From Vulcanimicrobiota bacterium (GTDB taxonomy: Bacteria > Vulcanimicrobiota > Xenobia > Xenobiales > JADMJV01), in assembly GCA_050250895.1 (NCBI GenBank), contig JBFWNU010000001.1:3315557-3379556 (forward strand): a DNA stretch of 64,000 nt. The letters run 5' to 3'. The position numbers were made by a program, and so were the translations under genes. This document shows, piece by piece, positions 8,770 to 40,909 of the stretch. Numbering within the stretch: position 1 is the first letter of the stretch; each line of letters starts with the position of its first letter. The notes beneath the pieces are model-generated. The model was not told the origin of the DNA and searched no databases. It was given only the letters and a program-made list of their open reading frames with translations.

Positions 8770-8789
8770 GTACTTCCAGCTGGAAGTAC
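8770..8789. promoter_or_regulatory. Perfect 20-bp palindrome GTACTTCCAGCTGGAAGTAC leading repeat array 1
   Basis: Read directly. The same 14-bp core occurs at 24839 and 25993. Function is inferred. Confidence 0.6.
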
Positions 8790-8793
8790 TCGC

Positions 8794-9807
8794 TGGCCCC
8801 ACCCGGAGTGGGCGAAATCCCCCTGCCGGGGTGGGGCCAGCCCCCGGCCACCTGACCCGGCAATCGCCAGGGCGGGCCAACTTGGCCCCACCCGGAGTGG
8901 GCGAAATCCCCCTGCCGGAGTGGGGCCAGCCCCCGGCCACGGTGCCTGAGCCGGCAACCCCGGGCCATCCTGGCCCCACCCGGTGGGCGAAATCCCCCTG
9001 CCGGGGTGGGGCCAGCCCCCGGCCACGGTGCCTGAGCCGGCTACCCTGGCCAACTTGGCCCCACCCGGAGTGGGCGAAATCCCCCTGCCGGGGTGGGGCC
9101 AGCGCTCGGCCACCTGACCCGGGGCCTGGCTACCCTGGCCATCTTGGCCCCACCCGGAGTGGGCGAAATCCCCCTGCCGGGGTGGGGCCAGCGCCCGGCC
9201 ACGGTGCCTGACCCGGCTACCCGAGCCATCCTGGCCCCACCCGGAGAGGGCGAAATCCCCCTGCCGGGGTGGGGCCAGCGCTCGGCCACCTGACCCGGGG
9301 CCCGGCTACCCTGGCCAACTTGGCCCCACCCGGAGTGGGCGAAATCCCCCTGCCGGGGTGGGGCCAGCCCCCGGCCACGGTGCCTGACCCGGCTACCCGA
9401 GCCATCCTGGCCCCACCCGGAGAGGGCGAAATCCCCCTGCCGGGGTGGGGCCAGCGCTCGGCCACCTGACCCGGGGCCTGGCTACCCTGGCCATCTTGGC
9501 CCCACCCGGGGTGGGCGAAATCCCCTTGCCGGGGTGGGGCCAGCCCCCGGCCACAGTGCCTGAGCCGGCAACCCCGGGCCATCCTGGCCCCACCCGGAGT
9601 GGGCGAAATCCCCCTGCCGGGGTGGGGCCAGCCCCCGGCCACAGTGCCTGAGCCGGCAACCCCGGGCCATCCTGGCCCCACCCGGAGTGGGCGAAATCCC
9701 CCTGCCGGGGTGGGGCCAGCCCCCGGCCACAGTGCCTGAGCCGGCAACCCCGGGCCATCCTGGCCCCACCCGGAGTGGGCGAAATCCCCCTGCCGGGGTG
9801 GGGCCAG
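8794..9807. repeat. Palindromic tandem array 1 (REP/BIME-like): 12 copies of a ~47-bp hairpin, period ~88 bp
   Basis: TGGCCCCACCCGGAGTGGGCGAAATCCCCCTGCCGGGGTGGGGCCAG starts at 8794, 8883, 8971, 9056, 9145, 9232, 9321, 9408, 9497, 9585, 9673 and 9761. The ~41-bp linkers fall into two recurring types. Lies between convergent genes. Confidence 0.95.
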
Positions 9808-9817
9808 CGCCAGGCGA

Positions 9818-11107
9818 CTAGTGGCCGGGGGGTTTCATCGGGTCTGAGGGAGGCATCGGCCAGACCAGGTCGGGGCGCTCAAAGACGCCGCCAAAGAAGT
9901 CGAGAATGCCGGGCCAGCGGTCGTCGAAGTCGGCCCAGTTGTACTCGGTGACCCGGGGCGTCAGGGGGTTGTGGTCGCGGGCCGGCAGGTGCTTGGCAAA
10001 GCCGGCATAGCTCCAGCCCCAATCGGGCAGCGGCACGGCCACTCCCGGGGTGAGAGCGGCGAAGAGGGCGGCGCGGTCGACCTCGCCCGGCTTGACTTCG
10101 CCGGGAGTGAACGCGGCCTGGGCTATGTCGTGCTGCTCGCGATAGGCCATCAAGATGCCAGCCATCTCCACCAGGCGATTGCGCAGGCGCAGGTCGTCGA
10201 CCGAGCCGGCCTTTTGATAGAGCGCGTAGCCCACCACCAGAAAGTTGCGGTGATCCAGGCCGGTGAACTGGTCGAAGTGAGTGGGTAGGGGACCGTCGCC
10301 CTCGACCGCCGGCATGAGGCCGGCGTAGATGGTGCGGGCCTGGTCAGGCGAGGATGGAGTCGAGAGGCTGAAGCCGTCGAGCACGTCCTCGGCCGTCAGG
10401 CCGGGCCCGAAGCGACGGCGGAAGTGGCAGAAGTCCTGGGCGCTCACGCCCAGCTCTTCGAAGATCTTCCGATTGCCATCTTCGAGCGTATTGCGGGCGG
10501 TGCGGGCCACCGCCAGCAGACGCTCGGTGAAGTTGGCTCCGGGAGCCGTCTTGGTCAAAGCGAGCAAACGCTGGCTCGAGACGAAGATGGTGCGAGGATC
10601 GAGGGCTCCGTCGGTCAGGCCGAGCAGCAGCAGACCGCAGATGCGCTGGGTTTCGTCGACCACTCCGTTGAGTTCGGCTCCGCCGGCCAGCTCGGCCGCC
10701 TGGGCCCTCAGCCGCTCGTCGGGGTTGTCTGAGGCGGCCCAGCCCTCCAGCAGGCGTTCGGCCCGCCCGGCCATCACCATGCCCAGGCCCGCCTGGCGCG
10801 AGGCCCAGGGTCCAAAACCAAACCACGACGGGCTGGTGGTGATCTGGCTGGGATAACCCGGGTCATACTCGCTTTGCAACAGGTGGGAAAATTGCGAATA
10901 GCTGGCCGTGATCTGCTGGTTGAGCTCTTCATAGCGAAGGCCGCGGGCTAGAATGCCGCGCACGTCGGGAATCTCGGGCTGAGTGAAGACAGGGCGCGAG
11001 GGCAGGGGCTCAAGGCGAGGCGCGGGCTCGAACCGATCCAACGACAGGAGGACCTCTCGCGGACGCGAGAGAGTCACCGCTTTCGGAGTGGCAGCGCAGA
11101 TCTTCAC
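9818..11107 (-). CDS. Hypothetical protein (possibly DUF2515-like)
   Basis: 429-aa ORF. NQQITASY...WFGFGPWASRQAG, LEDGNRKIFEELG and YNWADFDDRW resemble the DUF2515-type pattern from recall. Family call is weak. Confidence 0.7.
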   Translation of the reverse strand: MKICAATPKAVTLSRPREVLLSLDRFEPAPRLEPLPSRPVFTQPEIPDVRGILARGLRYEELNQQITASYSQFSHLLQSEYDPGYPSQITTSPSWFGFGPWASRQAGLGMVMAGRAERLLEGWAASDNPDERLRAQAAELAGGAELNGVVDETQRICGLLLLGLTDGALDPRTIFVSSQRLLALTKTAPGANFTERLLAVARTARNTLEDGNRKIFEELGVSAQDFCHFRRRFGPGLTAEDVLDGFSLSTPSSPDQARTIYAGLMPAVEGDGPLPTHFDQFTGLDHRNFLVVGYALYQKAGSVDDLRLRNRLVEMAGILMAYREQHDIAQAAFTPGEVKPGEVDRAALFAALTPGVAVPLPDWGWSYAGFAKHLPARDHNPLTPRVTEYNWADFDDRWPGILDFFGGVFERPDLVWPMPPSDPMKPPGH

Positions 11108-19556: not shown

Positions 19557-20800
19557 GCGCCCTCCAGGGGCAGTTGCAAAGTGAAGGTCGCGCCCTGACC
19601 GGGCTGCGAGTCGACCGTCAAGCTGCCCCCGTGGTCCTTGACGATTTGGTATGAAACGGCCAGCCCCAGACCGACCCCCTGGCCCACCGGCTTGGTGGTG
19701 AAAAAGGGTTCAAAGACGCGCCTCATCACCTCTTGCGGCATGCCGACTCCGGTGTCGCTCAGGCGCACGCGAGCCCGCCCATCCTCGACTCCGCAGGTGA
19801 CTTCGAGGCGACGCGGTGCGGTTTGGTTGAGTGCATCGCGGGCGTTGAGGACCAGGTTGAGAAAGACCTGGGCCAGTTGGGCTTCTTCGCCTTCCACCTC
19901 GACCGGCTCGAGTTGACAATCGACTTCGATCTCGAGCTTCTCGAGGCCGTGGCGCAGCAACTCGATGGTTTCTTCCAGGGTCTGATCCAGGCGAAACCGG
20001 CGCCGCTCGGCGCGCGCGGGATGAGCAAACCGCAGCAACCGGTCGATGGTGTCCCGGCAGCGTCCCACCGCTCGGGTCATCAGTTCGGTGCGCCGCTGTA
20101 AACCCGCCTCTTCGAGCTTGGGAGCCAGAGCCGTCAGGTTGAGGGCCAGCACTCCCAGCGGGTTGTTGATCTCGTGGGCCAGGCCGGCCGCCAACTGGCC
20201 CACGGCGGCCAACTTCGAGGCTTCAAAAAGCTGGGATTGGGTCTGGGCCAGCTCGGCTCTTGCTTGCTCGAGACTGGACTGATGCACTCGCTGCAGCTCG
20301 GCATAGAGAAAGGCGTTCTCGAGCGCCCGAGCGGCCTGATTGGCCACCGCTTCCAGCAGCTCGAGATGGCTCGGCTTGAAGACCCCGCTGCGAATCCGAT
20401 GATCGGCATAGACGACCCCTCGCACCTCGCCACCCCACCGCAGCGGGACGCACATGATGGAGTGGATACTCATCAGCGTGATGCTTCCGTAGTGGTGGAA
20501 ATCGGCGTCTTTAGAGGCGTCGTCACTCAATAGCGCGACCCCCTCGCGGGCCACCCTCTCGATGACGCTCCGGCTATAGTTGTAGGCCTGCTCGCTGGCC
20601 TCGGCATCGAGGGCCCGGCCGGCCACCAGGCGCCACCCCTCGCCCTCGCGCATGACTACGAAGCAACGCTCGGCTTCGAAGGCCTCGACCACTTGCTCGA
20701 TGAGGTTGTCGAGCACTTCGTCCAATTCTAGCGAAGAGCTGAGGATGGTGTTGACCCTCAACAAGAGGGCCAACTGGTCGCGCTCGAGGTGGGTCTCCAT
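19538..20800 (-). CDS. GAF-domain sensor histidine kinase
   Basis: SIMCVPL...GVVYAD (GAF); H-box LAHEINNPL; N-box QVFLNLVLNARDA; DTGVG, FEPFFTTK, GVGLGL. Confidence 0.95.
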   Translation of the reverse strand: METHLERDQLALLLRVNTILSSSLELDEVLDNLIEQVVEAFEAERCFVVMREGEGWRLVAGRALDAEASEQAYNYSRSVIERVAREGVALLSDDASKDADFHHYGSITLMSIHSIMCVPLRWGGEVRGVVYADHRIRSGVFKPSHLELLEAVANQAARALENAFLYAELQRVHQSSLEQARAELAQTQSQLFEASKLAAVGQLAAGLAHEINNPLGVLALNLTALAPKLEEAGLQRRTELMTRAVGRCRDTIDRLLRFAHPARAERRRFRLDQTLEETIELLRHGLEKLEIEVDCQLEPVEVEGEEAQLAQVFLNLVLNARDALNQTAPRRLEVTCGVEDGRARVRLSDTGVGMPQEVMRRVFEPFFTTKPVGQGVGLGLAVSYQIVKDHGGSLTVDSQPGQGATFTLQLPLEGACRPES

Positions 20801-20859
20801 GGCCGATTGGGTTCGCAGAGAACTAGGGCTGCCCCTCCGCCGGGCCGAACAGGGGCGCC

Positions 20860-22896
20860 ATGGAGTTCGACAACCTCCAGCAGTTTCTCGAGAGCATGTC
20901 TGCCCCGGCCGAGTCGAGCGGAGAGTTCACCCTGTCCCTCGACGAAGCCGAGCGCAAACTGGACCAGTTTCAGCTGCTCGAGCCGGGTCTGTATCCGGTT
21001 TTTCTGGTGGCCTCGGCAGTGGCCGGCGGGGCCAGCTATTTTCGCGTTGCTTACGACGACGAACAGGTTAGCTTCTCCTACAATTCCCAGCCCTATCCTC
21101 GTTCCGAACTCGAGAACCTGCGGGCCTACCGTTTTCGCAACCGGGGCGATCGCGCTTTGCGTCATCTGGCCGTGGCCCTGCTGGCAGCCGATCGAGTGTG
21201 CGAGACGGTCCAGCTGCGTACGGCTGGCGCCGTGCTAGATCTCCACGAGGATAAGGTGACCATCGTGCCGGCTTCAGACGCGCGCGAGAACCAGGTGGTG
21301 GTGACGCGTCCGCGCGGCTTTCTGTCGTCCTTCCTGCGCCGTCCCCCCGACCTGTCCGAGACGCTCACGCTCTGTCGCCATGCACCGCTAAGTCTGCAGT
21401 TCTCCGACGAAAAAAGAGTCAGCCGCTACTTTCACCATCACGACGCCCTGGTCCACCGCCAGTTTCTGTTAGCGGGCGAAATTCCCCCGACCTTCGTGCG
21501 TGGCCAGGTGCAAAAGGTGGAATCCCCCGGCCAATACTGTGGCGCGCTGGCCATCGTCACCCGTGAGGGCGGCTATCTGACTCTGGTGGTCGACGGACTC
21601 TCGCACCGGCTCGACGTGGACGAACCCTACCTCGGTGGGATCTTTTGGAACAACCACCTCAAGCTCGACCTCTCGTGTACGGGTTTGGTGCAAGACGAGA
21701 CGCTGGCCGAGATGCTGAGCCAGGTCTGGTCCCACCTTCCGGCCATGCTTCTCGAGCGCATACGGGCCGAGGGGGCTCTTGATTCTGACGAGCGGGACCT
21801 GCTCGAGCAACTGGTGCCCCAGGCGATCCGCCACTATGAGGCTTCAGACCCGGAGGCCGCCGACTATCTGCGAGGTTGGATGAGCACCGCTCAGTCAGCC
21901 GACATCCACCTTGGCCAGGCCGAACTCATGGCCGAACTGCGCCGGCTGGGGCCCGAGGACTCTTCGGCCCGCACGGTGGCTTTGCGGGCGCGGCTGCTCG
22001 AGGAGTTGACCCTGGCCTTTCGCAAGGCCAGCTGGTCGGGCGATCGGCAGGCCTTCGAAGAGAACCTCGCCTGGTTACGAGAGTTCCACGTGCCAACCCA
22101 TCCCACCCTCGAGGCTCTGGCTGAGGTGGTAGCGGCTCGCTCGGGAGATTTGCCCACCTTTAGCCCGGTAGACTCTGATTCTTTCGTGCGCAAAGTGGTC
22201 TGCCTGCGCTATCTTGGTGCCTACGACGAGGCGACGCGCCTGTGTGAGGAGGGGGCCGAGCGGTTTTCTTATCGCCAGGATTTTTTCGCCTGGCAGGTCG
22301 AGTTGCTGCTCTTGAGCGAGCCCAACCGTGCCCTGGCTGTAGCCCAGCGGGCCGCTCAGGCTTTCCAGGGACGGCCCCGGGGGCACTACGACCTGCAGGA
22401 GCGCCAGACTCATTTTCACGACCTGATAGCCGATTGTCACGATCTGCTCGGCGAGCCCAAAGCGGCGCTGGCAGCCCGACTCAAAGCCCTGGAGGAAACT
22501 ACTCCGGATTCTTATCTGGCCTACTTTCGGTTGCGTTACCTCACCACCGCCTATCGCGGCCACATGGCGTGGTTGGAGTGGGTGCGACGCGAGGTCGAGA
22601 CGCGCCGCCTAAGCTGGAGGGCCCGCCAGGGCAGAGACGCTTCGGCCGCCGCTCGCGACCAGGTGCGCCAGAAGCTCTTCCGCAGGCTCATCGCGAAGCA
22701 ACTGGCGGGCCTCGAGTCGACCTTGCTCGAGGTGGCCAAAGGCTACGTCTTCGACCGTGAGGTGGCGGACTATCTGTTGGGCCGCCTCAACCACCTGTTC
22801 CGCCAACGCGGCCAGTCGCTCGAGGGCGAACGCTTGTTAGCCCAGGTGCGCCTCAACTACCACATCGAGACCTTGACCAATTCTTTTCTGTACTAG
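20860..22896 (+). CDS. Degenerate GHKL/Hsp90-like protein with helical TPR-like C-terminus (paralogue 1)
   Basis: 678-aa ORF. SSGEFTL...LVASAVAGGAS and LKLDLSCTGLVQD blocks are shared with the genes at 31818 and 46878. Confidence 0.7.
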   Translation: MEFDNLQQFLESMSAPAESSGEFTLSLDEAERKLDQFQLLEPGLYPVFLVASAVAGGASYFRVAYDDEQVSFSYNSQPYPRSELENLRAYRFRNRGDRALRHLAVALLAADRVCETVQLRTAGAVLDLHEDKVTIVPASDARENQVVVTRPRGFLSSFLRRPPDLSETLTLCRHAPLSLQFSDEKRVSRYFHHHDALVHRQFLLAGEIPPTFVRGQVQKVESPGQYCGALAIVTREGGYLTLVVDGLSHRLDVDEPYLGGIFWNNHLKLDLSCTGLVQDETLAEMLSQVWSHLPAMLLERIRAEGALDSDERDLLEQLVPQAIRHYEASDPEAADYLRGWMSTAQSADIHLGQAELMAELRRLGPEDSSARTVALRARLLEELTLAFRKASWSGDRQAFEENLAWLREFHVPTHPTLEALAEVVAARSGDLPTFSPVDSDSFVRKVVCLRYLGAYDEATRLCEEGAERFSYRQDFFAWQVELLLLSEPNRALAVAQRAAQAFQGRPRGHYDLQERQTHFHDLIADCHDLLGEPKAALAARLKALEETTPDSYLAYFRLRYLTTAYRGHMAWLEWVRREVETRRLSWRARQGRDASAAARDQVRQKLFRRLIAKQLAGLESTLLEVAKGYVFDREVADYLLGRLNHLFRQRGQSLEGERLLAQVRLNYHIETLTNSFLY

Positions 22897-23149
22897 CCAG
22901 GGCCGTCGCGGCTCGTGTAGAGAGGGTAGTCTCGGCTGGCACCCGCCCAGAAGTGGTGGCTGCCTTGACAACAGAGGGTGTAGGCTGCCCGAAGCGAGCT
23001 CGATAGATCTCGAGCATGAGAGCCAGGCCCTTGAACTGACCGCGACAGGTGATCAGCTGCCCATCGGCCCCGAGCCGCCAGCTGGCCAGGCCGTTGAAGG
23101 CGATGGCGAGGATCAGGCTCAGGGCCAGGGCGGCATAATTGCGGGACAC
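22893..23149 (-). pseudogene. Probable frameshifted or internally deleted pilin/pseudopilin-like gene
   Basis: An N-terminal TM helix and GQLITCRGQFKGLALMLEIY are in one frame. AYTLCCQGSHH...DYPLYTSRDGPG* continues in another frame and stops at 22893, overlapping the stop of the convergent gene. Confidence 0.45.
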
Positions 23150-23180
23150 ATCGGCTTTACGCCGACGGCCCCAGGTCGGT

Positions 23181-23990
23181 TCACTGCAACTGGTCGGCGT
23201 GGTGGCGAGCGGCCTCGGCCGGATCGACCGTCTGGCCTTGCATGAACGGGCAGGCGGCCGCGCCTTTCTTGGCTTCTTGAGTGGACAGGGCGGCGGTCAC
23301 ACCAGGGTCCTGGTCAGACGCTCCATCAGCGAAGAACTCGGCCATGGCCGAGCCCGCCTGGTAGAATCCGAGGCTGCCGGGACGGGCGGTCCACTCTTCC
23401 GGGAAACGGTTCTCCTTGAAGAGCCGCACGAAGTCCTTGTTCATGATGAAGCGGTTGCCTTCGGCGTCGGTGCGGCCGAAGACTTCGACCACCAGCGAGA
23501 ACTCAGCTCCGCCGAAGATCTCCCCGCGTTGGCCAGGCTCTTCTTCGAGCAGGGCCTCTTGATAGCGGCGCAGGTCTTTGAGAGTCAGGCGCTCGCCGTC
23601 TGAGCTGAAGGTCAGCGCTTTGTCGAGGCGTTCCTGGCTGAAGCCGTTGCGCAGGATCTGCGAGTCGGCGTTATGGTCAAGGTTGCTGCCTTTGAGGGCG
23701 CGCAGGTTGAAACTATCCGAGGTCAGGGCGTCCCAAACGCCGTCGGCCGAGGTGCGGTTGGCGCCGAGCACGGCCACCTTGCGGAGCATATATTTGGCTC
23801 CGATGTCATCTTTGAGAAAGTCGTTGAGGCCGGTGCAATTGCCGTATTGGTCCACCTGGAGGCGGCCCTCACGCACTCCGGTCTTGAGGACAGGACAGGG
23901 AATCTCTTCGATGTCGAAAGGCTTGTCGTCGGCTTGTTGGGGGGCTTTGTGCCCATAGGGGCATACGCTGGCGTGCTGGTGAATCTGCAT
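23181..23990 (-). CDS. Heme-thiolate peroxidase (Peroxidase_2/chloroperoxidase)-like protein
   Basis: PCPVLK proximal Cys motif, LDHNADS (compare EHDxS), SSDGERLTLKDL, AEFSLVVEVFG and LFKENRFPEEW, in the expected order. Confidence 0.65.
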   Translation of the reverse strand: MQIHQHASVCPYGHKAPQQADDKPFDIEEIPCPVLKTGVREGRLQVDQYGNCTGLNDFLKDDIGAKYMLRKVAVLGANRTSADGVWDALTSDSFNLRALKGSNLDHNADSQILRNGFSQERLDKALTFSSDGERLTLKDLRRYQEALLEEEPGQRGEIFGGAEFSLVVEVFGRTDAEGNRFIMNKDFVRLFKENRFPEEWTARPGSLGFYQAGSAMAEFFADGASDQDPGVTAALSTQEAKKGAAACPFMQGQTVDPAEAARHHADQLQ

Positions 23991-24064
23991 AGAGCCAGGT
24001 TATTGCCCGGCGCTTAAACTATGCCTAAACATCGGCCCGCGCGCCCGTAGCGACGGGAAGTTTA

Positions 24065-24436
24065 TCAGGAATTCACATCGACGAGCCGGTCGGCCAGGTC
24101 TTCGCGACCGAAAGGGCGGATAGGAGTAGTATCCCGCAGCCATTCGAGGTCGAACTCGAGCCCCTCGATCGGCCCGGGGCACCCCAGATAGAGGGGACCG
24201 GCTACGGTGTCGATGCGCAGCAGATAGCAGTGGAACGAGTGCTCTTCCCACTCCCACCGTCGCTCGACCAGGGGAGGACCCTCGAGGCTGGCTACCGTGT
24301 AGAGTCCGGCTCGATAGCCGGCGGCTCGCAAGGGCGCCTCGAGTTCGGCCGACTCGAGCTTGCCCCGAGGCATGGGTTTCCAGCCCAGTTCCTCGACCAG
24401 ACGGAGGACTTCGTCACGGGTTGGTTCGAGTGCCAT
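24065..24436 (-). CDS. Hypothetical protein
   Basis: 123-aa ATG ORF with typical codon usage, filling the gap between genes. Confidence 0.65.
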   Translation of the reverse strand: MALEPTRDEVLRLVEELGWKPMPRGKLESAELEAPLRAAGYRAGLYTVASLEGPPLVERRWEWEEHSFHCYLLRIDTVAGPLYLGCPGPIEGLEFDLEWLRDTTPIRPFGREDLADRLVDVNS

Positions 24437-24501
24437 CCCGTAAGATTCCGCACGCGGGTCGGTAGGTCATCCCTCCCCTTCGGTTTGGGTCGTGCGGCCC
24501 C

Positions 24502-25704
24502 TTAGGGTGTCCTCGTGTGCCGGCGCTGCACGGCCGAATCCCGGGCGGCCTTCCACTCGGGCCGATTTGCAAAATCTTTATCATGCTCAGTGGCGTGGCA
24601 ACCCGGACACAACAGCTCTAAGTCGTCCAGTCGATGTTGTCTGGTTTCGGACCAGGCTCGAACGTGGTGGACCACCAGGTTGCCGCCTGGGCACGAGCAT
24701 CGCTCGCAACGGCCGAAAGCGCGGGCGTAAACCGCTCGCACCAACCCCACCGGAAGCCCCGGCCTGCCCTTTGTCCGGCTCGGCAGTAGCGACAACTGCT
24801 CGGGCTGGCCAGGTTCAGCTGGGGGTTTAGCCGGGCACCTTCCAGCTGGAAGTTGGGTTCGAGCCACCACGATTCCGGTTTGCTTCATCGCCTCGTCAAC
24901 GGCCTCGGGCTCGGCCTGCAAGAGTCCGCGGTCGGTGTCATAAAAGCCCTCACCCGTCTCACCGTTCACGTGCACGATGACCTGATGGCGCACTTTGCTG
25001 CGGTTGTCGGCCGAGGTGAGAAACTTCTTGCTCATTTCGGTCACCGCCGTCTCTTTGCTGACGCGTTTGCCCTGGCGGGCCTCGACCATTCTTTTCGCCT
25101 GCTCAAAGGTGGCATACTGCTCGGGGGTCAGCAGCAGAATGACCTGTCTCAATTTTGGCGCCGCCGGAACGGGGATCGGCTCTGGCTTGCGAACTGCTTC
25201 TGTGGGTTGCTCGGCGAAAGTCAGTTTGGGTTGCCTTTGGCGAGCTTCCAGCGAGGCTTTCATTGCCTGGCCACGCTTGTGCTGCGTGGGGGTAAGAGCC
25301 ACGGCGCGCTCGACTACCTGAGCTTTGTTCTTGAGGGCAAACTCGAGCATTTCGACCTCGTTCTCAGGGGTAGTGATTCGCTTGAGAGCGCGGGCTTTGC
25401 TCCAGCAGAGCTTTCCCTCGCGAAAGGCCTCTGAGATCAGTGGCAGTTGCTCGAAGACCCTCGCTAAACTGAGTAGTTCACCGGCCTTTTGAGGATGCAG
25501 GTTGAGGTGGGTTACAGCGTAGCCTACCGTACTCCCGCTACCCAGGTGGCGATAGAGTCCGCTGCGTTCGGTGGCCAAAAGGTGGGCGGCCAACTTCCAT
25601 TCGCAGTCGAAGGAGCACTTGCTGGCCTGGCAGTTGCTCTGATGGAGCTCCTGGTGAGACAGTTGTTGCAGGGCCTGGGAGAGTCCCGATAAAGTTGAAG
25701 ACAT
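24502..25704 (-). CDS. DUF222-like / HNH endonuclease (400 aa)
   Basis: GGAGG RBS before the ATG at 25704. N-terminal LPLISEAFREGKLCWSKARAL. C-terminal HNH/Zn motif RCERC...VHHVRAWS...LELLCPGCHATEH. Confidence 0.88.
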   Translation of the reverse strand: MSSTLSGLSQALQQLSHQELHQSNCQASKCSFDCEWKLAAHLLATERSGLYRHLGSGSTVGYAVTHLNLHPQKAGELLSLARVFEQLPLISEAFREGKLCWSKARALKRITTPENEVEMLEFALKNKAQVVERAVALTPTQHKRGQAMKASLEARQRQPKLTFAEQPTEAVRKPEPIPVPAAPKLRQVILLLTPEQYATFEQAKRMVEARQGKRVSKETAVTEMSKKFLTSADNRSKVRHQVIVHVNGETGEGFYDTDRGLLQAEPEAVDEAMKQTGIVVARTQLPAGRCPAKPPAEPGQPEQLSLLPSRTKGRPGLPVGLVRAVYARAFGRCERCSCPGGNLVVHHVRAWSETRQHRLDDLELLCPGCHATEHDKDFANRPEWKAARDSAVQRRHTRTP

Positions 25705-25744
25705 AGCCGACCTCCGAGTAGAAGAAGAATCAAGGAATAGCCCT

Positions 25745-25773
25745 ATTTTACTCCAGGACAACCGGCGGATCAA
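25745..25773 (-). promoter_or_regulatory. Putative sigma70 promoter of the HNH gene
   Basis: TTGATC-N17-TAAAAT on the minus strand, about 40 bp upstream of the start codon. Confidence 0.55.
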
Positions 25774-26035
25774 TGCCGTATAATGGCTTGGTTACGGGGT
25801 TTGGACGCTCCTTCGCAGGCGGCCGCAAGAAGGGGTTTCGAGGAGAAAATGATTCAGCGAACCATGTTCGGCGCGGGAGTGGCTGAGAGCGCTCATGAGA
25901 ACGTGGTCCGCCATGTTTCGGGGCGGAGCAACTTTAGGGCGATGTCTCATTTTGCGATTGTTAGAATGTCACAACATTTTGCCTCCGGCTGGCTTCCAGC
26001 TGGAAGTCCGTCCGAGGGCTGGGTGGATCCGGTTT

Positions 26036-26980
26036 CGGCACGTGGTGGCGCCGAATTCGGCACGTGGCGGCGCCGTACTCTGGCGAGGCTGCACTTCCGT
26101 GCGGAAGTTGGCTCGCCCCGGCTCGGCTGTAGCTGGCCGGTGGCGTCGGCGGGCGGCGAGTACGGCACCAGGTGGCGCCGAATTCGGCACGTGGCGGCGC
26201 CGTACTCTGGCGAGGCTGCACTTCCGTGCGGAAGTTGGCTCGCCCCGGCTCGGCTGTAGCTGGCCGGCGGCGTCGGTGGGCGGCGAGTACGGCACCAGGT
26301 GGCGCCGAATTCGGCACGTGGTGGTGCCGTACTGGCGAGGCTCTCTTCCGTGCGGAAGTTGGCTCGCCCCGGCTTGGCTGAGGCTGGCCGGCGGCGTCGG
26401 TGGGCGGCGAGTACGGCACTAGGTGGCGCCGAATTCGGCACGTGGTGGTGCCGTACTGGCGAGGCTCTCTTCCGTGCGGAGGTTGGCTCGCCGCCACTCG
26501 GCTGTAGCTGGCCGGCGGCGTCGGTGGGCGGCGGCGTCGGTGGGCGGCGAGTACGGCACCAGGTGGCGCCGAATTCGGCACGTGGTGGCGCCGTACTCTG
26601 GCGAGGCTGGCCAGGCTACACCGTGCGGAGGTTGGCTCGTCGCGACTCGGCTGAGGCTGGCCGGTGGCGAGCGGCGAGTACGGCACCAGGTGGCGCCGAA
26701 TTCGGCACGTGGTGGCGCCGTACTCTGGCGAGGCTGGCCAGGCTACACCGTGCGGAGGTTGGCTCGCCGCGACTCGGCTGTAGCTGGCCGGTGGGTTCGG
26801 CGGGCGGCGGGTACGGCACCAGGTGGCGCCGTACTCTGGCAAGGCTGGCCAGGCTACACTTCCGTGTGGAAGTTGGTTCGCCCCGGCTCGGCTGAAGCGC
26901 CGGCGGGTTCGACGGGCGGCGAGTAAGGTACGTCGTGGCGCCGTACTCTCGCAAGGCTGGGCCAGGCCATTTCCGCGGAA
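26036..26980. repeat. Palindromic tandem array 2: ~8 units of ~127 bp
   Basis: Each unit has a long hairpin GAGTACGGCACCAGGTGGCGCCGAATTCGGCACGTGGTGGCGCCGTACTC plus CTTCCGTGCGGAAG. GAATTC centres at 26053, 26180, 26307, 26431, 26571 and 26698. Two degenerate units follow. Confidence 0.93.
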
Positions 26981-27055
26981 CCCCTCCCCGACTGCCGCCG
27001 CCCGGCCAGATCCAGGCCGGCAGGTCGTCCCTTCCCTCCGCCAGAAACGGCGTCG

Positions 27056-27717
27056 ATGAGTCTACGTCGAGCGCCGGGGCCACGCGAGGAGCCGCTCCTG
27101 AAATACAAGCGTCTTCTGGTCGAGTTGAAACTTGTGTTGGAAGGATTGGGTTTCACCTCTCTGGGTTCAGAGCGGCATCAGGACTGGTATCGCGATGGCT
27201 TCCGTAAAGCCGTGGGCACCAACTATGTGCTGGTCGAATTTCGCGTCGTAAGGCCTGGACCCGGGGCGCGCCGCTGGCATGTCGAGCCAGTGGGGGAGTT
27301 GCGCTGGAAAGTCTGCATCGCGCATTTCGCAGCTGGGCCGACTGGCCGCCCTCGGAGGCAGGCGACTGGCTGCTGCCAGAACTTCCCTTCGAGGTGGGGC
27401 CTACTGATCGCGATGAGGATACGGTAAAGAAGCTGTCGGGCTGGCTACTTGCGGCCGATGTCGAGTTACTGTCGCGAGCCAGTGAGGCGGGGCTGTTGAT
27501 TGATGAGGCTCGACCCGAGCGTGGCAGTTTGGAGCAGCTGTTTCTGGCTGCTCGCCTGGGGAGGACGGACCTGGTGCGCGCTCAGTGGGAGAGGCTGTTG
27601 TTCTGGGCCGAGGTTCGTCATCGAAGCGAGGCCTCCGTCGTGATTGGCGAGTTGCGTCAGCGAGCCGCGGACCTGGGGATCGAGGTCGAGGAGTTTGGGT
27701 CATGTGACCCAGGTTGA
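27056..27717 (+). CDS. Hypothetical protein, probably one frameshifted gene (ORFs 27056..27427 and 27394..27717)
   Basis: The downstream frame reads ALESLHRAFRSWADWPPSEAGDWLLPELPFEV from about 27300. One extra G in the G5 run at 27292-27296 would fuse the two ORFs. Confidence 0.4.
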
Positions 27718-27745
27718 TGGGTCGTCGGGGCGCTATACTCAGGCT

Positions 27746-28171
27746 ATGAACTATCCGCTCTTCTTCGCAGTCATTTCGGTCTGGCCCGGGATGTGGTCGG
27801 CCTTGATGGCCTGGTATGCCTACGATGAGCCAGGGCATGAGGCGCTGGTTCCCAAGCGAAGCTTCTGGGCCGGTGCCGTGTCGAGCCTCTTGCCGGCCTT
27901 GATGGTGCTCGCCCACGCCTATCGGGTGAGCCTCAATCCCAGTCCCGGCGGCTGGATCGACCTGTCCGGAGTGGTCGTCTTGATGCTCGGAATGTTGGGT
28001 CTGGGCATGCTCATGTTCACCCCGGTGGTCGGCGCGCTGGCCGCCCTCGGGGCCAGGACCGGTCATCAGCGAAAAGGCCGGGTCGGGGGCGTGCTGGGTG
28101 CCTTCCTGGGCGGAGCGTCGGCGCTGCCCATCGGACTCGGCCTAGTGTACCTGGCGATTCTCGCATACTAG
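27746..28171 (+). CDS. Small integral membrane protein
   Basis: MNYPLFFAV... with about 4 hydrophobic segments. Confidence 0.7.
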   Translation: MNYPLFFAVISVWPGMWSALMAWYAYDEPGHEALVPKRSFWAGAVSSLLPALMVLAHAYRVSLNPSPGGWIDLSGVVVLMLGMLGLGMLMFTPVVGALAALGARTGHQRKGRVGGVLGAFLGGASALPIGLGLVYLAILAY

Positions 28172-29586
28172 GGCGCTGCAGCCGCCTGGTAGGCGGTGCT
28201 CCAGAGCTGTCGCAGGAAGGCGTCTTTTTCAACGTAGTCGGAGTGACCCGCACCCGGCGCGACTTGGTAGAGGTGCTTGATCCCGAGGCCGTCGAGCAGT
28301 TGCGAGAATTCGGCCGCCACCGGAGCCAGCCCGAATTCGTCCTTTTCACCGACGTAGAGATAGAGGTGGCCGTCAAAGCGCCGGCGAGCCTCTTCGGGGT
28401 GGGCCCTGGCCCAGAGATAGAGGTCGTGATGAGCCTCCCAGTAGGCCCAGACCTCGGGGTCGATGTGGCCGGTCTGACGGTCGAACATCGGGCGCGGGGC
28501 TCCCAGACTGCCCGGCGAGAAGCAGGCTTCGAAGGCGGCCATCTGGCCGGCCGCGCCGGTCAGCAGCTCGGGTCGGGTGAAGTCTTCCAGCGACAGCGGA
28601 CCGAACAGCATGTGGGGTGAGCCGTCGGCGTGACGATAGACGTTGTCTGAGTCGGGGGCCCACCAGTTCTTGAAGTGGAGCGGGTCAGGCGAGGTGGCCA
28701 GGGCCGTGCCGAAGACATCGGGATAACGCTGGCGGGCCGAGATGGCCGTCCAGCCTCCGCTCGAGTGGCCATAGATGGCCCGGTGGTCGGCCGAGGGCAA
28801 GGTGCGAAAGTGAGCGTCGACGTAGGTCACGATCTCGTCGACCAGAACCTGGCCGCGGGGTCCGTTGGCGGGGGAGTCGAGGTAAAGATGGTGGCCGAAT
28901 TCACCCGAAGAATCGAGGCTGATCAGAATCATCGGGTACTGCTGCATCTCGGCCCGAAAGGAGCGATAGCGCGACAGATAGGTGTAGCGGTTGCCGTTGA
29001 ATCCCGAGGTGACATAGAGGGCTGGGTAGCGGCGAGCCGTCTGGTGATAGCCTGGCGGCAGACCCACCAGAAAACGCACCGTGGCCTGTTCGGGGGTGAA
29101 ACCGGCTGTCAGCAGATGTTGGCTGACGAGTTGGTGCTGTTGATACCAGGCGGGCAGCTTGGGCCGATAGGGTCGGCGCTCGCTGTCGAGAGCGATGCGG
29201 GCGGTTCCCGGCCAGCGCAGCGGCGCGCTACTGTACCACTCGCCCTCGCCGGGACCCATTTCGACCATGAAGTCGGGGCGACTATCGAGATAGGCCGTCA
29301 CCTGTTCGCCGGGTTGGGGCTCGCCGATGTCGACTTCAACACTCTGGCCGGGGGCAAGTTCGATGCCTTTGCGGGCCACGATGCGACTGCCGTAGGCCAT
29401 GTTGGGGCCGGGGGTCTCGGGGCGAAATCGCACCTCGGCGGGGGTCACGAAGATCAGCAAGTTGCCGCGCAAGGTCTGGTCGGCCTGCGAGACCACGATG
29501 AGTGGGTCCGCCCAGACGAAGGCGGTGACCGCCAGCAGAGTGAGCGCGACTCTAAAGATCGAAGACAAGGCTGCGGGTGGCTCCAT
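28168..29586 (-). CDS. Secreted alpha/beta-hydrolase (Fes-like esterase family); start uncertain
   Basis: VGLPPGY...RYPALY, nucleophile elbow GHSSGG, VGEKDEF (acid) and PGAGH (His). Confidence 0.85.
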   Translation of the reverse strand: MEPPAALSSIFRVALTLLAVTAFVWADPLIVVSQADQTLRGNLLIFVTPAEVRFRPETPGPNMAYGSRIVARKGIELAPGQSVEVDIGEPQPGEQVTAYLDSRPDFMVEMGPGEGEWYSSAPLRWPGTARIALDSERRPYRPKLPAWYQQHQLVSQHLLTAGFTPEQATVRFLVGLPPGYHQTARRYPALYVTSGFNGNRYTYLSRYRSFRAEMQQYPMILISLDSSGEFGHHLYLDSPANGPRGQVLVDEIVTYVDAHFRTLPSADHRAIYGHSSGGWTAISARQRYPDVFGTALATSPDPLHFKNWWAPDSDNVYRHADGSPHMLFGPLSLEDFTRPELLTGAAGQMAAFEACFSPGSLGAPRPMFDRQTGHIDPEVWAYWEAHHDLYLWARAHPEEARRRFDGHLYLYVGEKDEFGLAPVAAEFSQLLDGLGIKHLYQVAPGAGHSDYVEKDAFLRQLWSTAYQAAAAP

Positions 29587-30637
29587 AGGTCTTGTCGAGC
29601 TTGCCGGGGGCCTCGAAGAGCAGGCGCACCGGCTTGACGTTCTTGGGCAGATGAAAGGCAAGATGGCCGGTGGCGGTGGCGCCCGAGTTGAGCTTGGCCC
29701 GGCGCGGAAAGCCGCCCACCAGGGCCCAGGTGGTGGTCTCTTGATAGACGCCGGCGATGCGATGAAGCTTGCCTTGCGAATCTTCGAGTTGCCAGAAGGG
29801 AATCTCGAAGCCGATGTCAGCCTTGTCTGGTTGAAGGTTCTTGGCTTCGAGGCCGATGAGCACCACCGAGCCGCCCTTGTCGAACAGGGTCCGCTTCACG
29901 TAGGCGAAGTGTTTGTCGGCTTCGGGGCCGCTGAGCCGGTCGCTCCAGGGCAGCGAGCGATAACCGTCGGCGGCGGTGACCTGACGAAAGTCGGTCACGC
30001 GCATCTTCCAGTGCCCGTTGTCCTTCCAGGCGGCCTCGGGAAGTTGCGGCTTGAGGGCGGTCGGGCCGTCGGAGTCGCTCTCGGCCAACCGGGCGACCAG
30101 GGTTTCGGATTTGCCCACCCATTGCTCCATCGCGCTCGAAGCGCGATAGAGCAGCAGGCGGGGCGAGCGGTTGGCCGGCAGGATGAAGCCGAATTTCCCG
30201 CGCAGACTCTGGCCTTTGGCCACCTTCGCCTGAGTCGGTAGGCCGTCGCTCAAGAACTCGGGGATCTGGGTGTGCAGAGTGCCCGAATTGCGGATCTCCT
30301 GACCGTCATCGCAACGCACCATCCACATCGGCATGCTATAGCCGATCTCCAGACCGCCGTGGCTGGCGTTGCGCAGGCTGATGTCGAGAATGACGACTTT
30401 GCCCCCACGTCCGAAAGCCAGCCGCTGCACCTCGGCCAGATGGCCGTCGAGCCCTTCGGCCGGCCGCCAATCCAGCTGCCGGTAGTGCTCGAGGTCGGCA
30501 ATCACCTGGATCTCGTTGACCTTGAGGTGCCAGAGATCGTTGCTGATCCACGCCTGGGCTGGTCCGATGTTGTGGTGGGGCTCGGCCCAACCTGGGATGA
30601 CAAGAAGAAGCACGAGAAGAAGCGACCACTTTTGCAT
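29552..30637 (-). CDS. Secreted protein with two homologous Ig-like (DUF4352-like) domains
   Basis: Signal peptide. Duplicated blocks NDLWHLKV...GGKVVIL...GKFGFILP and NGHWKMRV...GGSVVLI...GHLAFHLP. Confidence 0.75.
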   Translation of the reverse strand: MQKWSLLLVLLLVIPGWAEPHHNIGPAQAWISNDLWHLKVNEIQVIADLEHYRQLDWRPAEGLDGHLAEVQRLAFGRGGKVVILDISLRNASHGGLEIGYSMPMWMVRCDDGQEIRNSGTLHTQIPEFLSDGLPTQAKVAKGQSLRGKFGFILPANRSPRLLLYRASSAMEQWVGKSETLVARLAESDSDGPTALKPQLPEAAWKDNGHWKMRVTDFRQVTAADGYRSLPWSDRLSGPEADKHFAYVKRTLFDKGGSVVLIGLEAKNLQPDKADIGFEIPFWQLEDSQGKLHRIAGVYQETTTWALVGGFPRRAKLNSGATATGHLAFHLPKNVKPVRLLFEAPGKLDKTYGATRSLVFDL

Positions 30638-30677
30638 GGGGCGGCCTTCTCAGCCGCGAGCCCAGAACCTGCCGAAC

Positions 30678-30711
30678 GAAAAGACCCCACGCGCCTGGAA
30701 CGCGGGGGGTC
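30678..30711 (-). terminator. Intrinsic terminator after 30759..31106
   Basis: Minus strand GACCCCCCGCG-loop-CGCGTGGGGTC followed by TTTT. Confidence 0.7.
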
Positions 30712-30758
30712 AAGCCTGGGGCATCAAGCCGAAGCCTGACGCCGGGTAACTCTATCGG

Positions 30759-31106
30759 TTAGCGGTTGACGATCTCGAGTTCGAGATCAGGATTCTGATC
30801 CAGAGCCGCGACGGCTTCGTCACGGGTCAACCAGTTGCCGGTCTGGGCATACGTCTGGTAGCGGTAGTAGCCCGGCAGCGACATATAGTCGGCTTCTTCG
30901 GTGAAGGGCTCGAGCTCGCCAAATGCGATCGATTCCTTTTCGGCCGCATCGTCAAAGGTGCGGTAGTTGTGTTCGTACTGCATCCAGTCGGTGACCGGGG
31001 TGGGCTCGACGGTGTCGGTGTTCATCTGTTCCTGAGCGGTAGCCGGGAAGGTCGCACCAAACGCCAGCACGGCGGTAGTCAGGGCGGTAATCAAAGTCTT
31101 TCTCAT
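30759..31106 (-). CDS. Small secreted hypothetical protein
   Basis: GGAGG RBS; signal peptide ending ATA; YMSLPGYYRYQTY. Confidence 0.85.
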   Translation of the reverse strand: MRKTLITALTTAVLAFGATFPATAQEQMNTDTVEPTPVTDWMQYEHNYRTFDDAAEKESIAFGELEPFTEEADYMSLPGYYRYQTYAQTGNWLTRDEAVAALDQNPDLELEIVNR

Positions 31107-38334: not shown

Positions 38335-38588
38335 GGCGGGTCGGGGCCTTTGCTCCCGCGCAATCCCGGAGCCTCCCACAAAAGCCGGGAGCACCCCCTG
38401 GCTGGCGGGGTCGGGGCCTTTGCTCCCACGAAAACCGGGAGCACGCCGCCGCCGGCGGCGGGGCGGGTTTGCTCCGACAAAATCCCGGAGCGTGCTCCGA
38501 CAAAAGCTGGGAGCACGCCCTTGCCGGCGGGCGGGGCGGGTTTGCTCCGACAAAATCCCGGAGCATGCTCCCACAAAAGCTGGGAGCT
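38335..38588. repeat. Palindromic array 3: 7 short hairpins TGCTCC-(~11 nt)-GGAGCA
   Basis: Copies at about 38351, 38373, 38421, 38470, 38493, 38543 and 38566, between convergent genes. Confidence 0.85.
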
Positions 38589-38667: not shown

Positions 38668-40614
38668 CTAGGCAAGTGCAGGCGCGCCGGGCATGGCGTC
38701 GATGGCCACCAATCTTGAAGTGGGAGCGTCGCCGCGCAGCGAGGTTAGATACTCCCCATGGGGAGCGTTGTCGAGGTCGATCTCGATCACGCCGCCGCCG
38801 ATTTCCCAGAACAGCTCTTTGCCGTTGTTGCCTTTGCCGACATAGACGCTGTTGGTGCCCTGGTTCTCGCTGGCGATGTCGCCGGGCTTGTCGAAGTAGC
38901 GCCACTCGCCGGGCACCAGCTTGTCGCTGCCGGCATCAAAGCGGGCATATTCGACGCCAGCCACGGCACCGTCGCCGTTGTCCACCGGAGCATAGTTGAC
39001 GCTCACTTCAAAGCCCGAGTCGAAGGCATCACCATTGACGTCGTGCGAGTCGAAGTGGGAATGCAGGGCCAGGCTGCCGTGGGCGTTGTTGAAGTCGTCG
39101 GCGCCGATGGTGTCGAGCTGAGCCTTCAGGTTCAGCACGCGAATCGGAGTGGCGCAGTCGAGGATGTAGTCGCCCTTATTGGCAAACAGGTGCTCGATGG
39201 CGTCGGAAGCCTTGAGCGGCTGGCCCTGGTCGTTGGTGGCCCGCATCTTGAGATACTGAAAGGGCTCGCCGTCGTCGCCGGTGCGCTCGACCAGTTCCCA
39301 ATAGTCGGTGCGACCGAGAACGGACTCATCGCCCCGCTGCTGAGGTGGGTTAAGGCGGTTGTTGGGTAGATCGACGATGTTCTCGGTGAAATCCCAGGCC
39401 GGCTCGCTCGCCTCATAGGCCGCTTTGACCAGGTTCTCACGAAATTTGACGTTGTAGACATCCGAGTCGGTCAGCAGTCGTGAATCGACCACCTGGCCGT
39501 TGGCGTTCTTGATTTCCACGGTGTCGCCGGTGCTGATATCGCCGCTGCCGTTGACTCCGCTGTCGCGAAGGTTGACAGCCTGGCCGGCTCCGGCGAAGAG
39601 ACCGCTCAGAATCGAATTTCTCGTCTCGCTCAGGTCGAGCGCCGGAGCGTTGGTGGGTGGCGCCGGGTTGTTGGTGCCCGTGTTGGGGTTGGCGCCCGTG
39701 TTGGGGTTAGCTCCGGTGTTCGGGTTGGCGCCCGTGTTGGGGTTAGCCCCGGTGTTGGGGTTGGCTCCGGTGTTCGGGTTGGCTCCGGTGTTCGGGTTAG
39801 CTCCGGTGTTCGGGTTAGCTCCGGTGCTCGGGTTAGCTCCGGTGTTGGGGTTGGCGCCCGTGTTGGGGTTGGCTCCGGTGTTCGGGTTGGCACCCGTGTT
39901 GGGGTTGGCACCCGTGTTGGGATTGGCTCCGGTGTTCGGGTTGGCTCCGGTGTTCGGGTTAGCTCCGGTGTTGGGGTTGGCGCCCGTGTTGGGGTTGGCT
40001 CCGGTGTTCGGGTTGGCACCCGTGTTGGGGTTGGCACCCGTGTTGGGATTGGCTCCGGTGTTCGGGTTGGCACCCGTGTTGGGGTTGGCTCCGGTGTTGG
40101 GGTTGGCTCCGGTGTTGGGGTTGGCGCCCGTGTTGGGGTTGGCTCCGGTGTTGGGGTTGGCTCCCGTGTTGGGGTTGGCCCCGGTGTTCGGGTTGGCTCC
40201 CGTGTTGGGGTTGGCTCCCGTGTTCGGGTTGGCTCCCGTGTTCGGGTTGGCTCCGGTGTTGGGGTTGGCGCCCGTGTTGGGGTTGGCTCCCGTGTTCGGG
40301 TAGCTGCCGTAGCCTGAGTTGTAGGAGCCGAAAACTGCGCGATAGCCCCGGCCGGTGCCCCAGCTGTTGCTGTTGTGAGTGGGGTAGGTGGGGGCGGGCG
40401 GTTGATAGGTCGGGTAGTGCTGCTGCGGCGCCGGGGCCGACCAGCCCAGAAAAGAGGCCCAGCCCGAGAAGGCTGAAGTCAGGGTTTGATACTGCTGGTA
40501 GTGGCTCGCGTTGAACGAGGCGTAGCGCGGGGCGCTCTGGGTGTAGTTGAAGGAGTAGGTTGCTGGCGTGTAATTGATATTGTTGAGACGGTCGGGGCCG
40601 TAGTTATAGATCAT
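38668..40614 (-). CDS. Protein with Y/N/Q-rich N-terminus, NPNTGA repeats and a C-terminal Tgl-like transglutaminase domain
   Basis: ASDAIEHLF...YILDCAT...LKAQLDTIGADDFN and PGEWRYFDKP...QGTNSVYVG parallel Bacillus Tgl (YAFECAT...DTIGEDKFN, GDCLYFKNP...GEN). Confidence 0.75.
   Translation of the reverse strand: MIYNYGPDRLNNINYTPATYSFNYTQSAPRYASFNASHYQQYQTLTSAFSGWASFLGWSAPAPQQHYPTYQPPAPTYPTHNSNSWGTGRGYRAVFGSYNSGYGSYPNTGANPNTGANPNTGANPNTGANPNTGANPNTGANPNTGANPNTGANPNTGANPNTGANPNTGANPNTGANPNTGANPNTGANPNTGANPNTGANPNTGANPNTGANPNTGANPNTGANPNTGANPNTGANPNTGANPNTGANPNTGANPNTGANPSTGANPNTGANPNTGANPNTGANPNTGANPNTGANPNTGANPNTGANPNTGTNNPAPPTNAPALDLSETRNSILSGLFAGAGQAVNLRDSGVNGSGDISTGDTVEIKNANGQVVDSRLLTDSDVYNVKFRENLVKAAYEASEPAWDFTENIVDLPNNRLNPPQQRGDESVLGRTDYWELVERTGDDGEPFQYLKMRATNDQGQPLKASDAIEHLFANKGDYILDCATPIRVLNLKAQLDTIGADDFNNAHGSLALHSHFDSHDVNGDAFDSGFEVSVNYAPVDNGDGAVAGVEYARFDAGSDKLVPGEWRYFDKPGDIASENQGTNSVYVGKGNNGKELFWEIGGGVIEIDLDNAPHGEYLTSLRGDAPTSRLVAIDAMPGAPALA
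39673..40302 (-). repeat. Coding tandem repeat, 35 x 18 bp (NPNTGA)
   Basis: 630 bp. Variation is almost entirely synonymous; the exceptions are one NPSTGA and the terminal YPNTGA and NPNTGT. Confidence 0.95.
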
Positions 40615-40702: not shown

Positions 40703-40784
40703 CTTCCGCGCGGAAGTGAGCCCGGTCCGGCAGACAGTACGGCACGTGGTGGTGCCGGATCCGGCACCTGGTGGCGCCGTACTC
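40703..40784. repeat. Solo inverted copy of the array-2 unit
   Basis: CTTCCGCGCGGAAG followed by AGTACGGCAC...GCCGGATCCGGC...GGCGCCGTACTC. Confidence 0.8.
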
Positions 40785-40909
40785 CGGCGTGGCCGGGACA
40801 CCGCGCAATCCCTCGGGGGCGCAGGGCCGCCCCGATGGCCAGATTTTGACAATTCTGTCATTTCGTGGGCGCCGAGCAGCGATAGAGTGAGGAAAATTGG
40901 AGGAAACCC

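Follow-up and report, generated by a model that had tools for sequence, protein, structure and literature searches.

A 16-bp palindromic dyad, ACTTCCAGCTGGAAGT, was identified inside and upstream of a gene for an HNH nuclease with a DUF222-like N-terminal domain, in a 64,000-nucleotide stretch of a Vulcanimicrobiota bacterium genome (contig JBFWNU010000001.1, positions 3,315,557 to 3,379,556; hereafter the window). The gene belongs to a family, designated A, with 17 intact copies in this genome, and the palindrome recurs outside these genes in tandem arrays and as dispersed single copies. The explanation towards which we lean, with modest confidence, is that the dyad is the nuclease's own DNA site, with two sites maintained at the gene and arrays generated through nicking, in an arrangement comparable to that of REPs (repeats that are extragenic and palindromic) and REP-associated tyrosine transposases (RAYTs).

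Distribution of the palindrome and of tandem arrays

The exact 14-mer CTTCCAGCTGGAAG was located at positions 8773, 24839 and 25993 of the window, as an earlier note on this DNA had claimed. Three copies compare with 0.01 expected, a count reached in none of 100 shuffles. The looser motif CTTCC-N4-GGAAG was likewise present at each place where the note had put it (26094, 26221, 26345, 26859 and 40703), with eight occurrences in the window versus 0.17 expected. The copy at 24839 is situated within the HNH gene, in the linker ahead of the HNH domain (codons L285-R289 of the 400-amino acid form), while that at 25993 lies in the leader of tandem array 2, the start of which (26022) is 16 bp away, and that at 8773 stands 7 bp ahead of tandem array 1.

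The genome comprises 9.5 Mb in 17 contigs with a G+C content of 63%. Across it, 122 exact copies were found (0.04 expected) and 413 copies of the motif (approximately 11 expected), far above background as the earlier note had anticipated, with no more than one copy in any of the 150 other genomes examined in the phylum. Fourteen of the exact copies are in HNH genes, 42 are up to 3 kb upstream of them, one is downstream and 65 are elsewhere, 32 of these last being in tandem arrays. The proposed linkage to HNH paralogues was thereby upheld, with 56 of the 122 exact copies inside or no more than 3 kb upstream of 22 genes (approximately 1% of the genome). Outside HNH genes, 105 of 108 exact copies and 338 of 394 motif copies fell in predicted non-coding DNA, as divided by a rough gene model made for this analysis (79% coding).

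The central four bases were found to be self-complementary in at least 193 of the 413 motif copies (AGCT 122, GCGC 47, ACGT 21 and GGCC 3), with 6% expected. Judged from sequence, such a core would suit a symmetric protein that recognises duplex DNA better than it would suit an RNA hairpin. The description of array 2 in the earlier note as a hairpin array was weakly borne out, as one of its units folds at z = -1.94 and 11 of 200 shuffles fold too. No Rfam family was found in the window.

Tandem Repeats Finder, with arrays counted at a period of at least 40 bp, identified 173 tandem arrays that make up 1.25% of the genome. Within 1.5 kb upstream of the 22 genes of family A and its related subfamily A2, 11 arrays were present versus 0.6 expected, with two downstream. 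The motif was carried by ten of these 11 upstream arrays versus 27 of the 162 elsewhere (Fisher p=6e-7). The sequence flanking the palindrome was found to vary from array to array, the 16-bp dyad being the only element shared, and the unit type of array 2 is dispersed at 35 loci. In general, long-period tandem repeats, of several kinds, are unusually abundant in this genome.

The family-A gene and its repeated unit

The open frame of the window gene reaches the TTG at 25773. The ATG at 25704, giving a protein of 400 amino acids, is the likelier start, with the Shine-Dalgarno (SD) sequence GGAGG being conserved in all 17 paralogues. A protein search of the genome identified these 17 paralogues as full-length and stop-free (73-84% amino acid identity), together with one truncated copy, four to five copies at 44-48% identity (subfamily A2) and approximately 24 weaker matches that constitute further DUF222-like/HNH families, B, C, D and E.

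The 17 intact family-A copies are spread over ten contigs in unrelated contexts and thus form a dispersed multicopy unit. Their homology at the DNA level (73-82% identity) extends from the upstream palindrome, or a few bases before it, to the stop codon, with both edges being sharp and the flanks unrelated among the copies. This unit of approximately 1.5 kb was found to consist, from the left, of ACTTCCAGCTGGAAGT, situated some 290 bp upstream of the start codon, followed by 10-30 variable bases, an AT-rich dyad, approximately 150 semi-conserved bases, TTGAtc-17-TAAAAT, GGAGG and the ATG. The AT-rich dyad was matched in 16 of the 17 leaders and at approximately five other loci in the genome. 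CTTCC-N4-GGAAG was present no more than 510 bp upstream in all 17 copies, with the AGCT core in 15, and the two palindromes on the window gene are approximately 1.15 kb apart. A divergent promoter-like site, AGGACA-18-TATAAT (25755-25784, + strand), facing the leader and array 2, was rejected, being unconserved in the paralogues when compared by eye.

Pairwise comparison of the 17 paralogues gave a ratio of non-synonymous to synonymous substitution (dN/dS) of 0.13 at a dS of 0.84, with a ratio of 0.07 for the N-terminal domain. In their star-like tree, terminal branches account for 88% of the length. Each copy is therefore kept by purifying selection at its present place.

Outside this genome the family is rare. 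A word-indexed search for it returned 27 proteins, mostly the genome's own paralogues, and homologue representatives at E<=1e-10 numbered 293. A family match was identified in 20 of 151 genomes of the phylum, every one at no more than 45% identity. In a genome of the same genus (G088), the DNA in common with window positions 20000-31000 amounted to one 303-bp stretch at 69% identity. Among metagenome contigs, no relative was found using a single-protein query, and an alignment query revealed eight distant loci (27-50% identity), none with repeated palindromes.

Constraint on the palindrome within the gene

When the 17 copies are aligned by codon, the site within the open reading frame (ORF) reads CTT CCA GCT GGA AGT (LPAGS) and is situated amid hypervariable, indel-rich columns. 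The exact palindrome was found in 13 copies, with a core variant of CTTCC-N4-GGAAG in two more. Of the 1414 14-nt windows of the gene, none is better conserved (joint rank 1). Constraint on the site at the nucleotide level, for which the earlier note had proposed a check, was thereby upheld in the paralogues. At its five codon columns, the share of the modal codon was 94-100% versus a mean of 73% over 193 comparable columns, and the codons concerned are minority (rare) codons for family-A genes. In addition, dS in the linker was 0.56 versus 0.84-0.94 elsewhere in the gene.

Neither A2 nor the more distant homologues have the linker segment bearing the palindrome, and this segment is thus a lineage-specific insertion. 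Directly after the palindrome, a 27-bp insertion (window 24812-24838) that resembles a degenerate second copy of it was observed in five of the 17 paralogues, including the window copy.

Predicted domains, fold and dimer of the nuclease

The HNH domain was identified with Pfam PF01844 (E=1.3e-8; 35.3 bits versus a cut-off of 21.4), and the HNH metal-binding and catalytic residues C333, C336, H347, C366, C369, H370 and H374 were found to be at least 90% conserved in 92 homologues. The match to DUF222 (PF02720), at 16.3 bits, is below the cut-off of 24.4. This Pfam family was matched by 19 of the 92 homologues at E<=0.001 (best E 6.8e-23), and DUF222 is also a feature of the nearest Atlas clusters. 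At E<=1, scanning against Pfam returned HNH, DUF222 and DUF7850 only, with no CTPase N-domain of the ParB type.

Structure prediction gave a predicted local distance difference test (pLDDT) score of 86.8 for the full protein and 91.8 for the N-terminal domain modelled alone. In the model, a helical N-terminal domain spans residues 5-157 and a middle domain residues 194-274, after which a disordered linker (275-318) leads to the HNH domain. The palindrome lies in this linker, where the pLDDT falls below 50 at residues 286-293. A profile search of the PDB gave HNH domains as the only matches. Comparison of the whole model and of the N-terminal domain using Foldseek placed the DNA-binding domains of Noc, ParB and Spo0J on top (probability 0.98-1.0), with a target TM-score (TMt) of 0.60-0.62 for 6y93 and a root-mean-square deviation of 2.4 over 103 columns for 7ng0. 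Alignment with hhalign against a profile of 27 ParB proteins of the phylum set residues 59-141 on the helix-turn-helix (HTH) of ParB and its next helix, and no match was found when the full alignment was compared with a single ParB sequence. As modelled, the N-terminal domain is suggestive of a ParB-like fold.

A homodimer was predicted with a score of 0.80, the best of three controls scoring 0.00. In calibration, 20 of 30 proteins with a solved structure of two copies of one chain scored this high, as did one of 23 solved as single chains. At least 94% of contacts recur between runs, with a partner pLDDT of at least 66, and the predicted interface is symmetric, involving residues 4-50 and 184-268.

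The absence of a RAYT supposed in the earlier note was confirmed, with no match to Y1_Tnp/RAYT (PF01797) in this 99.6%-complete genome; the control search matched six of 14 known genomes. No family of the PADLOC defence-system models was matched at E<=0.01. Defence-system and phage readings were rejected, as were IscB/CRISPR-Cas9 (the IscB NCBIfam model scored 26.5 bits versus a cut-off of 175, over the HNH part only) and a CRISPR-like array (the units are head-to-tail without unique spacers, and Rfam is silent).

Palindromes of subfamily A2 and of other HNH families

In subfamily A2, which is 45% identical to family A, the palindrome was found in codons of the C-terminal tail (T-S-x-R-K). Mutual homology of the A2 copies stops exactly at this palindrome, and the tails past it differ. 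The core of the tail palindrome is the same as that of the upstream one in three of four loci (GGCC/GGCC, GTGC/GTGC and GCGC/GCGC), and of the three GGCC copies in the genome two are at one A2 gene. Genes of A2 and of family D are bracketed on both sides by the palindrome. At the 3' end of one A2 locus (C11:32427-33500, - strand), a 109-bp tandem duplication of the last codons and the palindrome was observed, which from its sequence looks like a nascent array growing from the gene's own end.

The further DUF222-like/HNH families in this genome, at least four in number, comprise approximately nine copies of B, approximately ten of C, three of D and one of E. Family C is approximately 30% identical to A and looks recently active; its copies share 90-93% DNA identity, and its unit runs at least 300 bp past the stop codon. 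The palindrome of family C, (G/A)CACACGTGTGT, was found in the leader of six of ten copies and in the linker of all ten. The 17 copies within one mismatch in the genome are divided into ten in ORFs, six in leaders and one other.

Pairing was scored where one palindrome with arms of 5 or more stood both in the ORF and up to 800 bp upstream. By this test, 16 of 17 family-A genes were positive, as were three of four in A2, seven of nine in C and two of three in D. For family B the ORF definition failed for five of seven copies, and a mismatch search identified both sites in three of nine copies. The candidate significance of palindromes within ORFs of B and C was weakened by a codon-shuffle test, with that of C being restored by the leader-plus-ORF pair and that of B remaining weak.

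Single relatives elsewhere were also seen to have a palindrome upstream and inside or after an HNH ORF, and are too sparse to generalise. These are L068 (G054:C66), with AGCGCGCGCT at -232 and +976, L014 (G078:C345), with GTCCCCCGGGGGAC three times, and L058/L059 (G060), with TCCCCACTGGGGA.

Feature coordinates and other repeats of the window

Features of the family-A locus and of its palindromes and arrays, along with examples of the other families, are listed in Table 1. Other repeats were observed in the window. The stretch at 39680-40301 consists of 34.6 copies of an 18-bp unit, GTGTTGGGGTTGGCTCCG (88% match), and a 73-bp repeat of 2.3 copies at 38421-38587 is made of 23-bp hairpins of the TGCTCC-CACAAAAGC-GGGAGCA type, which are of a different family from the CTTCC palindrome. 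A 36-bp unit at 5504-6046, repeated 15 times (85% match), is probably a coding repeat.

Table 1. Coordinates of features in the window and of example members of other HNH families (contig:positions)
Feature	Position	Strand	Remarks
Family-A DUF222-like/HNH nuclease coding sequence, 400 amino acids from ATG 25704	24502..25704	-	Conserved SD and ATG; open frame to TTG 25773
N-terminal all-helical domain, residues 1-160, DUF222-like	25225..25704	-	Best fold matches are Noc/ParB DNA-binding domains
HNH motif PF01844, residues 333-376	24577..24708	-	Pfam, conservation
Palindrome within the ORF, CTTCCAGCTGGAAG	24839..24852	.	Codons CTT CCA GCT GGA AG(G/T), disordered linker
Sigma-70-like promoter TTGATC-17-TAAAAT, upstream of SD and ATG	25745..25773	-	Block conserved in paralogues
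AT-rich leader dyad	25958..25978	-	Window copy is a variant of the family consensus AAT[AG]TT-N10-AA[CT]AT
Upstream palindrome, 5' boundary of the repeated gene unit	25993..26006	.	Sequence matches, paralogue alignment
Tandem array 2, periods of approximately 112-140 bp	26022..26967	.	CTTCC-N4-GGAAG kept in four units
Solo palindrome, 8 bp past the end of ORF 8118-8765 (stop codon), 7 bp ahead of array 1	8773..8786	.	
Tandem array 1, 88-bp unit	8793..9823	.	Unit type differs from array 2
Solo variant CTTCCGCGCGGAAG	40703..40716	.	Adjoins a short 22-bp repeat (40740-40788)
Family B examples	C2:473107-473610, C7:431996-432496		
Family C examples	C2:281907-282212, C3:16712-17014, C1:370743-371045		
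Family D example	C5:340772-343475		

Proposed mechanism and alternative explanations

We infer a nuclease of four parts, in which a helical DUF222-like N-terminal domain is followed by a small middle domain, then by a disordered linker and last by the catalytic HNH domain. This nuclease would form a dimer and in this state would bind the dyad. At its own gene, the two sites approximately 1.15 kb apart may serve self-control or loading. Elsewhere, binding of the dyad followed by an HNH nick or cut would provoke repair synthesis, by which the site and its neighbouring DNA could be duplicated into arrays, with the site or the gene occasionally being copied to new places. The arrangement would be REP/RAYT-like, with an HTH-HNH nuclease replacing the tyrosine transposase. 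A precedent in vitro is described in section 4.7 of PMC10520511, where nickases acting together with a strand-displacing polymerase produce repeats in which the nick site is included. A broader proposal, advanced tentatively and with some doubt, is that dimeric nucleases of the DUF222 superfamily, having an HTH like the ParB DNA-binding domain joined to HNH, may each own a private palindrome of parS size, which would mark two places at their gene, and by nicking it may drive tandem amplification and genome-wide spread of DNA that bears the site, free of transposases.

Several observations weigh against these proposals. More than half of the exact copies (65 of 122) and 298 of the 413 motif copies are more than 3 kb from any A or A2 gene, 27 arrays bearing the motif lack an A or A2 gene in the 1.5 kb on the corresponding side, and 136 of the 173 tandem arrays are free of the CTTCC motif, which is therefore not needed for this genome to form arrays. 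In B and C, the palindromes stay within their own units, without amplification. The coding and non-coding split of the copies comes from the rough gene model described above. A palindrome of 14-16 bp in one ORF is unremarkable on its own, as codon-shuffled nulls give a mean arm of approximately 6.5. Furthermore, the palindrome did not carry over to relatives in six other genomes, where the upstream-plus-ORF pair was positive in one of 20 loci and none of 20 ORFs had a palindrome longer than the codon-shuffled nulls. The ParB-like segment named in the earlier note was matched in fold and in profile register, but the likeness is statistically non-significant, with every Foldseek E-value being 0.27 or worse and the hhalign comparison giving P=0.054 and a probability of 1%, while Pfam HTH_ParB (PF17762) matched genuine ParB alone and not the HNH protein.

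The main rival explanation, which we regard as unlikely, is that the palindrome is an independently spreading REP-like repeat whose arrays arise through slippage or recombination, with the HNH unit, starting at the AT-rich dyad, inserting alongside it. Some insertion sequences insert into REP or bacterial interspersed mosaic element (BIME) sequences. The copy within the ORF would then be an old repeat insertion into a tolerant linker, in keeping with the lineage-specific nature of that segment. The distance of most motif copies and of the 27 arrays from HNH genes would also be accounted for, as would the 35 loci of the array-2 unit type, and families B and C demonstrate that an HNH family may own a palindrome without amplification. 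However, a neutral insertion would have decayed at a dS of 0.84, whereas the palindrome is the best-conserved window of the gene. The association is also one-sided, with 42 exact copies upstream versus one downstream and 11 arrays versus two, and three or four families pair an upstream with a 3' site, each with a different core or palindrome. Insertion beside the repeat would itself require that the element recognise the palindrome.

The predicted symmetric dimer and the placement of identical dyads 0.93-1.3 kb apart, bracketing the promoter and most of the ORF in A, C and D, would equally suit palindromes that are autoregulatory operators only, acting by looping or as a roadblock, with the copies and arrays in the rest of the genome being decoys or mechanistically unrelated. 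The near restriction of the B and C palindromes to their own units agrees with such a role. It is nevertheless judged improbable as the whole explanation, since it leaves unaccounted for the 413 copies, at least 338 of them in predicted non-coding DNA, the excess of arrays upstream of HNH genes and the coincidence of the palindrome with the edge of the repeated unit. Least credible to us, and given little weight, is that the palindrome serves a host factor, or is a structural or terminator-like element as in classic REPs, with HNH genes accumulating in permissive extragenic DNA. The extragenic position of the palindrome, including the array-1 copy 8 bp past a stop codon, and the general abundance of arrays (173, or 1.25% of bases) would fit. 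Against this stand the 14 copies within HNH genes versus three in all other predicted coding DNA, the matching of A2 cores within a locus, with two of only three GGCC copies at one gene, and the self-complementary central four bases, which a hairpin loop does not need. Recognition of the dyad by the nuclease itself is the simplest account and the reading that we favour.

Significance of a candidate DNA target

DUF222-HNH genes of the REP13E12 type are widespread and multicopy, and to our knowledge neither a function nor a DNA target is known for them. The locus described here supplies a candidate target, a 16-bp dyad that is found within the gene, where it is conserved at the nucleotide level, as well as at the upstream edge and in extragenic repeats numbering in the hundreds. 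A2, C and D, which differ in their core or palindrome, act as internal replicates in one genome. Should the nuclease act on this site, REP-like arrays can arise without RAYT transposases, and a DNA-binding module of the ParB/Noc type would have been recruited to aim a nuclease. The enigmatic REP13E12-type genes would thereby gain a mechanism, and bacteria would have a second way, based on HNH, of forming REP-like arrays.

Comparison with known systems

In gene structure, the closest likeness is to the DUF222-HNH '13E12 repeat' genes, found as REP13E12 in Mycobacterium tuberculosis and also in actinobacterial relatives, which have the same order of a DUF222-type N-terminal domain followed by a C-terminal HNH, and which are likewise present in several dispersed copies. 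REP13E12/HNH/DUF222 is listed as a repeat class in the accessible portion of PMC10589994. In contrast, the family-A protein is below the DUF222 cut-off and belongs to another phylum. In the literature searched, no cognate palindrome, two-site layout or linked arrays were found reported for REP13E12, and no report was found that ties HNH or DUF222 genes to palindromic repeat arrays.

With ParB-parS and Noc with its binding site (NBS), the system shares a 16-bp dyad without a spacer. The half-site ACTTCCAG has four of eight positions in common with parS (TGTTTCAC) and three of eight with NBS (TATTTCCC), these consensus sequences being taken from the available part of PMC7383237. Unlike ParB and Noc, the protein is fused to HNH, has no CTPase N-domain and gives no significant sequence match. 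The ParB-HNH fusions reported in the section of PMC12704722 available to us involve the CTPase fold and not the DNA-binding domain at issue here.

Free-standing HNH homing endonuclease genes resemble the family-A unit in being self-contained, with their own promoter, many contexts and sharp edges. The unit differs from these in that the gene does not split its recognition-like site, which stands uninterrupted both next to it and within it, and in that its copies are old and each under purifying selection.

REP/REPIN-RAYT systems, as described in the parts of PMC3116915 and PMC3337134 at hand, have in common with this locus a short over-represented extragenic palindrome, a tandem or clustered arrangement and a nuclease gene that has its own repeat at its flank. 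They differ in their enzyme, which here is HTH-HNH with no Y1/HUH transposase, and in having one gene per repeat group, whereas 17 copies are present here. Furthermore, unlike in REP/REPIN, the site of the present system is a perfect dyad carried in array-specific units, with one copy inside the ORF.

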